NCBI GenBank assembly: GCA_024407725.1 | Contig: JAKSVZ010000001.1 | Coordinates: 60,001 to 92,000 of the forward strand | Length of the DNA stretch: 32,000 nucleotides | Direction of reading: 5' to 3' | From: Opitutales bacterium | GTDB lineage: Bacteria; Verrucomicrobiota; Verrucomicrobiia; Opitutales; UBA9783 | Part shown: positions 522 to 4,221 of the stretch, piece after piece | Layout: each line of letters starts with the position of its first letter | Position numbering within the stretch: position 1 is the stretch's first letter | The notes under the pieces: generated by a model | What the model saw: the letters and a program-made list of their open reading frames with translations, nothing else | The model's database searches: none | What the model was told of the DNA's origin: nothing | Program-made: the position numbers and the translations under genes

Positions 522-2237
522 TTACCGAGCAGGGAATTTCTCAATTACCTTACCGTATATTTCCTCAGCTTTTTTACGTATATTGGACGCTTCCGAATCA
601 TAATTATTAATCGTCGTTTGAGCATCCGTTATTTCCGTATTCGTATTTTGAATAGAAGTATTAATAAATTCACTTTTGTTATTTAATGCGCTAATCCAAG
701 ACGATGCGACATCACCCGTAATCTTGCTAGAATCACACCAAGCATTCCATTCTTTAACGCTTTTCTTTAATACATTGGTACAAGTCAATTTTGCAGGAAG
801 TTTAAATGTCCCCTGAACGTTCACTTTTTTACGGCCATAATGATTACCTGATTTAACATCCGCTGTATAATACTCAGTAGGACTATTTGAGAAAACAATA
901 TCTTCATTGGCATTAATACAGTAAGGCTTATTATCTTGATTTGTTCTTAGCCCAACAGTTCCATCCCCACAATTACTATCTACTGTTCCATCTTCACCTA
1001 ACAAAAATCGTTTTCCATCTGTATCTGTTGTAAGCAACATGAATTTTCCAAGATCATCTGGATTTTCTAAAACCAAAAGTGACTTGCCTGATTCATCTTC
1101 AAACAAACAGTACATATTGTCTGACAATAAAAAGATTAATGCTAAATAAGCTGCATCCGCCAAACGATGTTTATGCTCATCGGTTGCACCGTTCTGAGAA
1201 GCATTAACCATATCAGTTGCATGCGCAATAAAGTCCAAATAAACATTAAAAGCACTGATATAATGCGACAATAATTCCAAATTCGCTCTCAATGCACGAA
1301 CTTTAACATCCAAAAAGGTTGCAGGCGCATTTAACGCACCAAATTTGTCGACTAGGTAACCAATATAAAACAGCTCCACGTTTCCGTCACGGTCAGACGC
1401 ACTACCCTCCCCCTCTCCATCATCAGGTACGCAAGGATAACCAGTAGCAGGATCAGCAGGGAACACTAGATAATTATGGTCATTATCCAGTATGATTCTT
1501 TTATAATAAAAATGAATAAACTCCAAACGGCTCAATAAATTCAACGAACGAAAAATCGGTAATTTCCAGTAAGGATTTCCCTTCGTAGTATCCGTATAGG
1601 GAACCAGCGTTTCACGTAATTCCTTCAATTTATGATAATCGGTATAGTTCTTTAGATGTTTAGTATCAACCTCACCGGTCATCAAATCCCATTGCTTTGT
1701 GTCGTTATTGTACTGCAGGTATTGCCTAAACTCATCGAGGTAATCCTTCATGGCTGTTTCTGTATACCACTTTAAGGCATCAAATTTTTCAGGCACTTTT
1801 TGTTTGAGCTCTTCCAGCGTAGCTCCAGCATCACGCATCTCCTTAAGTTTACCAGCAATATCTCGAGCAATTGCAATCGTATTATGGATTTCGTGAATTA
1901 CCCCAACAATCCATTTAACGTAAAACAGATACGCGTTATATCCTTCACGACAGTAATGATCGATAAAATATTTATCCTCTACTTCGTGAGGTCCCGGCGG
2001 CAGGATAAAACGAGAGTTAACGATCAATTGGTCTATGGAAGTAATATCATACTTATATTCAACAATCGCATTTAAACGAGTAAATATTTTCGCCTCCTCC
2101 TGATCAAAGGTTCCATTTACTTTAAACTTATCATAATAGTCATCAATAATATCGTTAGGGACAATAGGGTTATCGGGCTGAGGCGCAGCAATAATCTGTG
2201 GATTCAAAATAGGATTAATCTCATTAATAATAGCCAT
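522..2237 (-). CDS. Hypothetical 571-aa protein, distal member of a tandem paralogue pair; possible T3S substrate / IpaD-SipD-like tip-protein candidate
   Basis: Long ORF with ATG 6 nt after the stop of the upstream paralogue. It shares many blocks with the 527-aa neighbour (LSRLEFIHFYYK, GYPCV, FYIGYLVDKFG, FNVYLDFIAHATDMV, RFLLGEDGT, TFKLPAKLTC). No signal peptide or TM segment. The function is inference only. Confidence 0.85.
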   Translation of the reverse strand: MAIINEINPILNPQIIAAPQPDNPIVPNDIIDDYYDKFKVNGTFDQEEAKIFTRLNAIVEYKYDITSIDQLIVNSRFILPPGPHEVEDKYFIDHYCREGYNAYLFYVKWIVGVIHEIHNTIAIARDIAGKLKEMRDAGATLEELKQKVPEKFDALKWYTETAMKDYLDEFRQYLQYNNDTKQWDLMTGEVDTKHLKNYTDYHKLKELRETLVPYTDTTKGNPYWKLPIFRSLNLLSRLEFIHFYYKRIILDNDHNYLVFPADPATGYPCVPDDGEGEGSASDRDGNVELFYIGYLVDKFGALNAPATFLDVKVRALRANLELLSHYISAFNVYLDFIAHATDMVNASQNGATDEHKHRLADAAYLALIFLLSDNMYCLFEDESGKSLLVLENPDDLGKFMLLTTDTDGKRFLLGEDGTVDSNCGDGTVGLRTNQDNKPYCINANEDIVFSNSPTEYYTADVKSGNHYGRKKVNVQGTFKLPAKLTCTNVLKKSVKEWNAWCDSSKITGDVASSWISALNNKSEFINTSIQNTNTEITDAQTTINNYDSEASNIRKKAEEIYGKVIEKFPAR

Positions 2238-2243
2238 ATTATA

Positions 2244-3827
2244 TTAACTTATACGTTGTGCAATGCGTTCACATACGCCAGTCACCCAAGTATTAAAGGT
2301 ATTATTGGCGGTATCAAACGTCGTCATTTGTTGATAAACATAATCAATATCGGTATGTAATGCCTCAATCGATTGGGTGCAAAAATTTACCTTCGACTGT
2401 AAAGCTTCCTGACACGACTTAATAACATCATCGGTCACTTTGTCTTTGTTATTGAAATCTTTATATGCTTTTACACTTTCAGGGGTGACCAATTCACACT
2501 GAATTTGTTTGGGTAAAACAAATGTTGTTTTAAGATATTTCGCACTCCCAATATAAATTCCATCTGCATCAAGTGCATTTGAATAGAAATACCTATCCGG
2601 AACTTCATAAGTTGTTAGATTCATAAGCCATTTATTACAATCAGTGTTCCAATTGGCTTTAGCATAACAATTGCCTCTATAATTCTGCGTGGTTCCATCG
2701 TCTCCTAATAAAAAATTCATCCCTTCTTTATCTGCTTTAATCACCGAATATCTATTCGCGACAGGGGTTTTAATGACTAAACAGGTAACTCCATTATCCT
2801 TCAACAGCGTGTACATTGGCCCACCACACAAATACGTTAATGCAAAGCGAACCCCATTGGGTATGATTTGATTCTTAGTAGAAGAATGAAGAACGTCTAA
2901 TGCACGGTTTAAAAACTCTGTATAATAAGAAAACGTATCTAGCTGTATTTTAAGATCCGCCAAACTAGCTTGGATTGCTAATGCTTTCGTTTCTAACAAT
3001 TTGAGAACCGTGGAATCAGATCCATTGCGGTCTGATATATATCCCCAATAAAAGTTTTCAATTTCCCATCGAAAAGCATCTGCCGCTTCTTTAACCCCAG
3101 GGTAACCCCTCGATACATCATTCGGGTAAACCGCATCGCTTTTTCCATTATCTATCTGGTAATAAACACGGATAGCGCGCAGCCGATCCAGCAGGTTCAC
3201 CTCCCGCATAATCTCTATCGGCTCCTTAACAATTTGATGGCGTTTCTTATCAACTGGGGTTTGACGTAAAGCCTCATAGGAGGGGTAATTGCCCTGAATT
3301 TGCTCATGCACCCCTGTACGATAATCATCCTGATAGACCGTCCAAGCCATGGCATCATAATCGTAAATGCAGCGCAGGCTAAAGTTATTTATAACCTCAT
3401 TGCTAGACTTTTCGATCATTTCCAGCTCAGTAATCGTGGGAAGTGCTACCCCAGAATCGGTTGGGGTATCCTCAGGCAAGTCTCTCAATTGATCCAATAA
3501 GGCATCTGTTTGGAGGATATAATCACCTAGGCGGTTAAATTGATCAACGATCTTTCGACCGTAAAACTTATAAGCCCTATTGGCCTCTTCGCTATCAACG
3601 CAAATATTTTTTACAAAGTCATCGATAAAGGAAATATGCCGCTGCCTATCGTCGTATTTGATGGGCGTATTAAAAATATCATTTAATTGCTTCAGTAGGT
3701 TATCCTGAATCGTCTTATGTTCAGCACTTAAATCAGCATATTTCTGAATAATTTCTGTTAAATTTGCATTAACAACGGCCCCAACCGCACCGACATTGGG
3801 ATTTACACCAATTGGAGGAATAGCCAT
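2244..3827 (-). CDS. Hypothetical 527-aa protein, proximal member of the tandem paralogue pair; possible T3S substrate / tip-protein candidate
   Basis: Long ORF whose ATG (3827-3825) lies 1 nt after the TAA of the upstream 130-aa ORF. Paralogous blocks: LDRLRAIRVYYQ, GYPGV, FYWGYISDRNG, FSYYTEFLNRALDVL, NFLLGDDGT, TFVLPKQIQC. C-terminal helix ...YQQMTTFDTANNTFNTWV. Confidence 0.85.
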   Translation of the reverse strand: MAIPPIGVNPNVGAVGAVVNANLTEIIQKYADLSAEHKTIQDNLLKQLNDIFNTPIKYDDRQRHISFIDDFVKNICVDSEEANRAYKFYGRKIVDQFNRLGDYILQTDALLDQLRDLPEDTPTDSGVALPTITELEMIEKSSNEVINNFSLRCIYDYDAMAWTVYQDDYRTGVHEQIQGNYPSYEALRQTPVDKKRHQIVKEPIEIMREVNLLDRLRAIRVYYQIDNGKSDAVYPNDVSRGYPGVKEAADAFRWEIENFYWGYISDRNGSDSTVLKLLETKALAIQASLADLKIQLDTFSYYTEFLNRALDVLHSSTKNQIIPNGVRFALTYLCGGPMYTLLKDNGVTCLVIKTPVANRYSVIKADKEGMNFLLGDDGTTQNYRGNCYAKANWNTDCNKWLMNLTTYEVPDRYFYSNALDADGIYIGSAKYLKTTFVLPKQIQCELVTPESVKAYKDFNNKDKVTDDVIKSCQEALQSKVNFCTQSIEALHTDIDYVYQQMTTFDTANNTFNTWVTGVCERIAQRIS

Positions 3828-3828
3828 G

Positions 3829-4221
3829 TTAGATCATTCGTTTCATGGGCATCCGGCACTTCAACCGAGAAGTCCATTGCGTATGAGCCTTATCAGGATC
3901 CGACATAATCGGATCCTGATGGCCTGCTAATAGAATCTGTTTACCATTCAATCCTTCCGGAACCACGCCGACCGGCTGCTTATTCTGTTCCAATAACGAA
4001 GCCATACACTGTAATTCATTCAGCATATATTTTTCGTTGGGAGCAGTTTTTTGCAAAAAATCTATGAACGCATCGATATAGTCCTTTGTTAAATACTTTT
4101 CATCAAACGCATCTAATTTCAATTGATGAAAAACATTCTGCAAACGATCCAAACGCTCTTTCAATTCATCTATCTGGTGCAACATCTGTTCCGGTTGAAT
4201 CTCATTCGTTTTCATTCGCAT
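3829..4221 (-). CDS. Small (118-130 aa) predicted helical protein with basic C-terminal tail, first gene of the operon; possible dedicated chaperone/regulator of the downstream paralogues
   Basis: ORF translationally coupled to the next gene. N-terminal heptad-like EQMLHQIDELKERLDRLQNVFHQLKLD; C-terminus RLKCRMPMKRMI. The start is uncertain (ATG 4221, 4215 or Met13 at 4185). The adjacent -24/-12 element would place the transcription start site (TSS) at about 4219. Confidence 0.65.
   Translation of the reverse strand: MRMKTNEIQPEQMLHQIDELKERLDRLQNVFHQLKLDAFDEKYLTKDYIDAFIDFLQKTAPNEKYMLNELQCMASLLEQNKQPVGVVPEGLNGKQILLAGHQDPIMSDPDKAHTQWTSRLKCRMPMKRMI

Follow-up and report, generated by a model that had tools for sequence, protein, structure and literature searches.

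We found that three adjacent minus-strand genes in a 32,000-nt stretch of an Opitutales bacterium genome (GCA_024407725.1, contig JAKSVZ010000001.1, positions 60,001 to 92,000; hereafter the window) form one sigma-54-dependent operon of this gut bacterium. This trio encodes one small protein and two large ones. The large proteins belong to a previously undescribed family, known to date from Opitutales and Puniceicoccales alone, and the genomic neighbourhoods of the family link it to type III secretion, in particular to the chaperone/translocator module. The explanation we favour, tentatively and with somewhat less than even confidence, is that the large proteins are exported distal type III secretion system (T3SS) components, forming adaptor, filament or tip layers that work with a YopB-like translocon, and that the small protein is their export chaperone. 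By function the module would be tip-like or hook-associated-protein-like; by ancestry it does not belong with IpaD, SipD or LcrV.

The trio begins with the small gene (C130, 3829–4221, minus strand; 130 aa), which is followed by the genes for B527 (2244–3827, minus; 527 aa) and A571 (522–2237, minus; 571 aa). Re-reading the junctions gave TAA-c-ATG (1 nt) between the small gene and B527 and TAA-tataat-ATG (6 nt) between B527 and A571, the same spacing that a preliminary description of this DNA had reported for the three open reading frames (ORFs). The order of a small gene followed by one or two large genes was repeated in about 20 independent Opitutales and Puniceicoccales contigs with unrelated housekeeping contexts, and the junctions in related loci were tight in all lineages (mostly −4 to +4 nt between the small gene and B, 2–11 nt between B and A), so the arrangement lies far beyond chance. 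The small gene always stood directly upstream of a large family member, with one single large gene after it in Puniceicoccales, and the trio consisted of single-copy orthologues whose gene order was fixed across the two orders. Immediately beside the trio in the window were housekeeping genes (PFOR, RadC, SulP, PBP2, PPDK, GpsA, FabI, FabZ and XseA). B527 and A571 are identical to the hypothetical proteins MJ218_00385 and MJ218_00380 of an Opitutales (Verrucomicrobiota) metagenome-assembled genome (MAG), and the chlamydial origin that the preliminary description had implied did not hold.

A sigma-28 promoter was expected for the trio because the window also carries a fliA gene. No canonical sigma-28 promoter was present upstream of the trio, and de novo inspection instead revealed a sigma-54 (RpoN)-type promoter, TGGCACACTATATGCT (−24 GG/−12 GC; 4230–4245, minus), 9 nt upstream of the small gene's annotated ATG. 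A weaker site of the same type, TGGCCTAAAATATGCT (4343–4358, minus), with one mismatch to TGGCAY-N5-WTGCT, lies 122 nt before the small gene; a second site like it was also found in the sister locus L028, and loci L016 and L042 had clear tandem sigma-54 sites. In almost all lineages the motif TGGCAY-N5-WTGCT preceded the small gene by 9–20 nt, and it stood 12–19 nt upstream of the genes of a third clade of the family, described below. Across trios, third-clade operons and the fliA operon of the window it was present at 23 of 28 non-redundant targets, and 46 matches were counted in 573 kb, against 6.7 ± 2.6 expected in shuffled sequence. Inverted repeats built on GGAAAAATTTTCC (L015 9439–9474, L023 7473–7502 and L042 7818–7873) lay about 50–170 nt upstream of trio sigma-54 promoters and look like putative enhancer-binding-protein sites, while the window's own 157-nt intergenic region had no palindrome of this type. 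By analogy, sigma-54 control would fit flagellar middle genes and equally a chlamydial-type injectisome, as the sigma-54 regulon of C. trachomatis includes scc2-CT577-copB-copD (PMC7482065).

That the two large proteins are paralogues, as proposed from the sequence, was borne out by BLASTP (E=1e-34, 26% identity across 466 aa) and by profiles of their orthologue sets, which matched end-to-end (hhalign probability 100%, E=1e-105). The matching blocks originally picked out by eye, LDRLRAIRVYYQ/LSRLEFIHFYYK, GYPGV/GYPCV, FYWGYISDRNG/FYIGYLVDKFG, NFLLGDDGT/RFLLGEDGT and TFVLPKQIQC/TFKLPAKLTC, were all in register in the alignment. Neither protein has a signal peptide or a transmembrane (TM)-like segment (maximum 19-residue Kyte-Doolittle mean 1.3), likewise as claimed, and both are acidic (pI 5.0 each), as are the large family proteins in general (pI 4.7–5.5). 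A profile search of 1.84 billion cluster representatives returned 94 relatives of 526–1765 aa, and the family comprises an orthologous A clade (with A571), a B clade (with B527) and the third clade. Scanning 185,579 species genomes yielded 20 family loci, all of them in MAGs from the rumen or the gut of humans and termites that are assigned to Opitutales or Puniceicoccales or are unclassified Verrucomicrobia; JGI metagenomes added only four further loci, and every member with a named source came from gut Opitutales or Puniceicoccales. No chlamydial homologue appeared in the homologue searches, our literature search found no report of a T3SS in Opitutales or Puniceicoccales, and to our knowledge there is no cultured representative.

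Family members carry no Pfam domain. Scans of the trio proteins against Pfam and NCBIfam (E≤10) gave only sub-threshold coiled-coil matches, 57 members scanned one by one at E≤1 (25 most-matched families) gave only coiled-coil noise, and a PHROGs scan gave nothing significant. Three family profiles (A1, A5 and the C-terminal sub-profile A7) searched against PDB sequences at E≤10 returned only DotZ, SusD, STAT1 and HA2 noise, and a Foldseek search of a model against viral structures had no match. Readings of the two proteins as a BtubA/B-like cytoskeletal pair or as phage proteins were rejected because there were no tubulin or phage matches.

Good AlphaFold models were obtained for B527 (pLDDT 82.0, pTM 0.61; low-confidence termini) and A571 (pLDDT 81.6, pTM 0.68; low-confidence N-terminus, residues 1–27). 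The B527 model has long helices at residues 23–52, 80–115, 129–150, 258–314 and 466–526, a beta-hairpin at 151–166 and a beta-rich domain at 342–431, and the A571 model has helices at 97–136, 149–171, 289–347 and 508–567, a beta-hairpin at 172–187 and a beta domain at 386–473. The predicted architecture is an elongated coiled coil in which Pfam scans recognised no enzymatic domain. In the common order a beta-hairpin comes after two long helices and is followed by variable insert sites and then by a C-terminal helix of 60 residues; the termini are of low confidence. Conservation across the family was highest in the central segment and not at the termini, and the insertions of longer members were located in loops of the alpha/beta parts. 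Taken together, the large proteins have the traits of exported axial proteins: they are acidic, lack signal peptides and TM segments, carry long N- and C-terminal helices with low-confidence termini, span 526–1765 aa, and are closely coupled in translation to a small partner. When A571 was compared with 350,542 PDB chains by Foldseek, about 38 of the 40 best matches were flagellar axial proteins (flagellins of many species, FlgL 3pwx/5yti, FlgK 5xbj, and junction and cap complexes). These alignments covered nearly the whole target and reached a probability of 0.87 (Caulobacter FljK), but were weak (E 0.19–5, TM-score to target ≤0.41); for B527 the pattern was weaker, with flagellar axial proteins at about 8 of the 50 best matches. 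In the models the fold is thus weakly closest to the flagellin/FlgL/FlgK axial-protein superfamily, and its order appears compatible with a flagellin-like D1/D0 core plus an extra, highly conserved central helix.

The small protein is conserved in its N-terminal part and in its basic C-terminal tail, which has the form T-x-[KR]-[LI]-K-x-[KR]...[KR]-x-I-COOH; the linker between them is variable. This tail, the last 22 residues (window 3829–3894; Q-W-T-x-[KR]-L-K-x-[KR]-x4-[KR]-x-I), is the most conserved part across the two orders (pI 10–12) and may act in docking to the export gate or to the ATPase. Translation probably starts at the third codon, Met3 (nt 4215), and not at the annotated ATG, because conservation begins at Met3. 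The protein had no Pfam or NCBIfam match, and hhalign comparisons with known partners gave probabilities of 1.9% for LcrG, 1.8% for FlgN, 1.3% for FliT and 0.2% for FliS. We consider it a candidate dedicated export chaperone or partner of both large proteins.

The strongest tie to type III secretion came from the third clade (650–756 aa), whose genes lay directly upstream of a gene for a tetratricopeptide repeat (TPR) protein, followed by a gene for a hydrophobic protein, in seven contigs (L007/8, L023, L024, L026, L027 and L030). The TPR protein of L008 matched TIGR02552 at E=8.5e-29 (100 bits against a cut-off of 104.8), and by BLASTP the third-clade TPR protein matched Yersinia LcrH at E=3e-16 and Shigella IpgC down to 4e-19, which identifies it, on sequence similarity, as a true homologue of LcrH/SycD (class II) chaperones. 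The hydrophobic protein scored above the Pfam SseC threshold (33.4 against 30.2 bits), matched YopB at E=9e-5 and contained TM hairpins. The order of third-clade gene, LcrH homologue and YopB homologue is that of lcrV-lcrH-yopB, which we checked on pCD1. The third-clade operon contains no small partner gene, and the trio has the small partner without a chaperone or translocator downstream. The two modules were adjacent only in L023 and L024, where the third-clade operon is divergent from the trio at a distance of about 1.7 kb; in five Puniceicoccales genomes the third-clade operon lay about 8 kb from the small-plus-large pair on the same contig.

At least one trio-bearing genome has an injectisome, because a gene for an SctC secretin was present in L042 (18114–20120), 6.5 kb downstream of the trio and past the ribosomal protein genes rplM and rpsI. 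Over the T3SS-specific N-domains this secretin aligned with YscC at E=1e-47; it matched MxiD at 2e-32, and GspD of the type II secretion system only at 2e-6. The SctC gene was preceded and overlapped by a gene for a small, uncharacterised protein of 132 aa. The T3SS genes of L042 look scattered amid housekeeping genes, and scattered T3SS loci also occur in Chlamydiae (PMC3459982).

The window itself contains, on the plus strand, a fliA-headed operon (27263–31824) that looks like a translocator operon led by a flagellar-type sigma factor. A sigma-54-type promoter, TGGCATCGATTATGCT (27263–27278, plus), stands 15 nt upstream of fliA (27293–28072, plus), whose product is a FliA/WhiG-family sigma-28 factor (TIGR02479 E=3e-54; E=2e-28 in BLASTP with E. 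coli FliA). Next come o549 (28105–29754, plus), a candidate translocator with an N-proximal bilobed hydrophobic hairpin at about residues 60–116 and a weak match to the YopB/SseC-like protein of L008 (E=1.3e-4), then o207 (29943–30566, plus), an LcrH/SycD-family class II TPR chaperone homologue, and o400 (30622–31824, plus), a candidate second translocator with the same hairpin at about residues 70–126. The chaperone gene is flanked by these two genes for TM-hairpin proteins, and o549 and o400 are paralogues (E about 1e-25). The TIGR02552 match of o207 (E=3.6e-14, 52.6 bits) lies below the 104.8 cut-off, and BLASTP aligned o207 with Yersinia LcrH at E=1.5e-6 (25% over 120 aa); o207 and the L008 TPR protein both combine the marks of a class II LcrH/SycD chaperone, namely TIGR02552 and LcrH/IpgC matches and adjacent hydrophobic proteins. 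A homologue search of 5.8 billion proteins with o400 returned only itself, and o400 is extremely fast-evolving. Because its promoter is of the same sigma-54 type, we placed this fliA-translocator-like operon in the inferred regulon of the trio.

Several further genes near these modules were recorded. Directly beside the trio in three Opitutales contigs was a gene for a class-3 lipase of 500–564 aa (L023 5931–7433, L024 6062–7570 and L042 6100–7794), with a Pfam Lipase_3 match in L023 and L042. The lipase, placed in L023 and L024 between the trio and the third-clade/chaperone/translocator operon, is a candidate secreted phospholipase. The window also holds two minus-strand ORFs at 16512–17903 and 18107–19627, whose 463-aa and 506-aa products (o463 and o506) are distant paralogues (E=2e-9) without a Pfam match and possibly represent another fast-evolving secreted family. 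Relatives were found near the trio in L011 and L013, and L009 contains three unannotated genes of about their size. When o463, o506 and other uncharacterised window ORFs were compared with the large proteins, they were rejected as further family members. Genes for a STAS (anti-sigma antagonist-like) protein (L030 13972–14274) and for a GAF-SpoIIE phosphatase (L042 2290–4199) lie near the modules and, by analogy, hint at partner-switching regulation as in Bordetella and chlamydial systems. In L030, a complete-looking flagellar operon runs into third-clade, LcrH-like, YopB/SseC-like and STAS genes where fliPQR-flhBA would stand (82–14274).

A tip-like or translocon-associated role of the family is plausible by analogy because of the lcrV position of the third clade, the proximity of that operon to the trio, the SctC gene nearby in L042 and the LcrH-like chaperone in the window. 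Under the favoured explanation, the small protein would hold the large proteins unpolymerised in the cytoplasm and deliver them to the type III export gate, possibly through its basic C-terminal tail. The large paralogues would then be secreted by the type III system, assemble extracellularly on the far end of a needle or hook, and act as adaptor, filament or tip layers together with a pore-forming translocator of the YopB/SseC type. The third clade, whose genes share a transcript with those of the LcrH-type chaperone and the translocator, would supply the layer touching the pore. This layout resembles LcrG-LcrV-LcrH-YopB-YopD of the Ysc system (also PcrGVH-PopBD and the SPI-2 genes sseA-sseB-sscA-sseC) in having a small helical partner upstream of a hydrophilic, elongated protein without TM segments, and in having a paralogue, the third clade, directly upstream of a chaperone of the LcrH/SycD class and a translocator of the YopB/SseC class. 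It differs from the Ysc module in that the Opitutales proteins resemble LcrV, LcrG, IpaD and SipD neither in sequence or profile nor in fold and are about 200–400 aa longer, that two to three paralogues take the place of one, that a single hydrophobic translocator follows the chaperone, and that the module is split over separate loci (23 kb apart in the window).

Several observations weigh against this explanation. No third-clade gene was seen in the window's lineage among the contigs examined, and in the window's own genome the trio lies amid housekeeping genes, 23 kb from the operon with the LcrH-like chaperone. The signal for a flagellin-like fold is weak, for B527 much more so than for A571, and no search matched the proteins, by sequence or by fold, to a known family of tip, filament or translocator proteins. 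Secretion itself, like the chaperone role and extracellular assembly, is something we infer. Finally, the sole apparatus genes directly beside a family member are flagellar: in L030 (Verrucomicrobia bacterium UBA1183) the third-clade gene begins 2 nt past fliO, at the end of a fliF-G-H-I...flgD-flgE-fliL-M-N-O operon. Because flagellar genes adjoin this member and canonical flagellins are encoded near two others, the exporting machine could be a flagellum.

The main rival, which we consider unlikely, follows from these flagellar links and takes the trio as an equivalent of flgN-flgK-flgL, that is, a chaperone and two hook-filament junction or other axial proteins, with the third clade as a FliD-like cap. 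A chaperone gene followed by two paralogues is the order of flgN-flgK-flgL in Bacillus; E. coli K-12 has flgN at a separate place from flgK-flgL. The flagellar axial proteins among the best Foldseek matches, most for A571 and several for B527, make such proteins the nearest, if weak, PDB structural neighbours, and the succession of helix, helix, beta-hairpin, variable insertion and long C-terminal helix mirrors flagellin D1/D0. Besides the fliO junction in UBA1183, genes for canonical flagellins (266 aa, D0/D1-only) lie 2.4 kb from the trio in L017 (16773–17573, minus; Flagellin_N 3e-27, Flagellin_C 4e-16) and 6.6 kb from a family member in L019 (8269–9069, minus). Both have sigma-28-type promoters (TAAAGTTT...GCCGAT), with consensus spacing in L017 and a spacer two bases short in L019. 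Hook-associated protein genes are sigma-54 dependent in the two-tier flagellar hierarchies of Vibrio, Pseudomonas and Campylobacter, and sigma-54 promoters on the trio with sigma-28-type promoters on the flagellins match such a hierarchy.

Homology searches, however, did not bear this rival out. Flagellin_N/C, Flg_bb_rod, Flg_bbr_C, FlgK_D1 and FliD had no match in the window proteins (E≤10) or in the 57 members, the sole trace being FliD_N in 2 of the 57 at E=0.06; hhalign gave less than 1% for the family against E. coli FliC, FliD, FlgK, FlgL and FlgE and only 1.8% for the small protein against FlgN, and the C-terminal sub-profile yielded coiled-coil noise only. Hook and flagellin are canonical in the same bacteria, so that junction proteins would be expected to retain the conserved terminal motifs, yet conservation in the family peaks centrally, and flagellins lack both its extra, highly conserved central helix and its FYxGYLIDRDGP motif. 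Most trio loci hold no flagellar genes. Unlike flagellar axial proteins, the family occurs with chaperone, translocator and secretin genes of the injectisome type, and the constant co-operonic coupling of one clade with LcrH and YopB homologues would be left unexplained.

A second rival, rather improbable in our view, is that the trio is unconnected with type III secretion, serving for example as a coiled-coil scaffold of the cytoplasm or envelope that sigma-54 controls, and that its proximity to T3SS genes is coincidental. The housekeeping neighbours in the window and at most loci would suit such a scaffold, as would the lack of any known domain and Foldseek scores that are individually non-significant. 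It is difficult to reconcile with the seven contigs in which paralogues are operonic with LcrH and YopB homologues, with the trio adjoining that operon in L023 and L024, with the promoter type common to both, and with the SctC secretin near the trio in L042.

The large proteins might instead be type III secreted effectors, directed at a host or at protists, with a dedicated chaperone, an alternative we judge quite improbable. Single-copy orthologues in fixed order across two orders behave like core components and usually not like accessory effectors, one clade is strictly operonic with a translocator chaperone, and the elongated coiled-coil architecture contains no recognised enzymatic domain. 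These points outweighed, to our minds, the fast evolution, lineage restriction and variable inserted domains of the family, its dedicated small partner gene, and the resemblance of the nearby fast-evolving uncharacterised families and the conserved class-3 lipase to an effector repertoire.

Hardly credible is the proposal of the preliminary description that the large proteins genuinely belong to the IpaD/SipD/BipD or LcrV/PcrV tip families and the small one is LcrG/PcrG-like, given that all homology tests (Pfam, NCBIfam, PDB profiles, hhalign, Smith-Waterman and the best 50 Foldseek matches) were negative and the large proteins are about 200 aa longer than tip proteins. That proposal rested on co-linear IpaD/SipD motifs, and none of the searches detected tip-protein similarity. 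Pfam gave no PF06511 or LcrV match for A571 or B527 at E≤10 or in the 57 members scanned singly (E≤1, 25 most-matched families), and PDB sequence searches with family profiles at E≤10 contained no tip protein. For direct comparison, authentic IpaD was taken from pCP301 (Shigella) and LcrV and LcrG from pCD1 (Yersinia): four family profiles reached an hhalign probability of at most 0.4% against IpaD, hhalign against LcrV gave 1.1–3.3%, Smith-Waterman scores against IpaD were within the shuffle range (94/200 and 8/200 shuffles scoring at least as high), and BLAST high-scoring segment pairs against IpaD were not co-linear. No tip protein was among the best 50 Foldseek matches of B527 or A571, and no fold superposable on the solved SipD, IpaD or BipD structures was obtained. 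The matches to SipD motifs were thus at chance level, in line with the original caveat that the resemblance could be coincidental. What does recall tip proteins is a similar order of architecture in the models (helical at the N-terminus, then a long helix, a globular alpha/beta insert and a final long helix at the C-terminus), and the gene arrangement. The likeness to lcrG-lcrV holds for the small-plus-large order and for the third clade at the lcrV position, and fails for the proteins themselves (LcrG 1.9%, LcrV 1.1–3.3%); the suggested tip-like role draws partial support from genomic context, while membership of the IpaD/SipD/LcrV families was rejected.

With the chlamydial-type injectisome, the Opitutales system shares membership of the Planctomycetes-Verrucomicrobia-Chlamydiae (PVC) superphylum, scattered T3SS genes, sigma-54 promoters before chaperone/translocator operons and a sigma-28 factor. 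It differs in that no chlamydial homologue of the family was found and that these bacteria carry real flagellar genes, so the identity of the chlamydial tip protein does not follow from the finding. No other part of a T3SS evolves as fast as its tip and translocon proteins, which homology searches routinely miss, as stated for the Myxococcales and Chlamydiales systems (PMC3459982).

Another reading, which we regard as a long shot, is that flagellin-fold axial proteins (the A, B and third clades) make up the distal adaptor, filament or tip of a type III system in gut Opitutae and bear a YopB-type translocon, the genes of this system being interleaved and co-regulated with flagellar genes. The interleaving is drawn from the third-clade-chaperone-translocator module that follows fliO in one genome and from the translocator-like genes that follow fliA in the window. 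If true, this would mean either a flagellum-type apparatus deploying injectisome-type translocators or an injectisome tip recruited from hook-associated proteins, and hence a living flagellum/injectisome intermediate or hybrid in the PVC superphylum.

These cumulative results place the conserved, unannotated family, next to true LcrH and YopB homologues, in the tip position of a type III module in widespread commensal Opitutales and Puniceicoccales of the rumen, human gut and termite gut, and extend the sigma-54 control of translocator operons, known from Chlamydia, to Verrucomicrobiota. This indicates that these little-studied gut bacteria may inject proteins into eukaryotic cells, whether of the host or of protists. 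The family is a concrete candidate for the missing distal component of the PVC-type injectisome, and, if its flagellin-like fold is real, it would bear on the relation of injectisome tips to flagellar hook-associated proteins.

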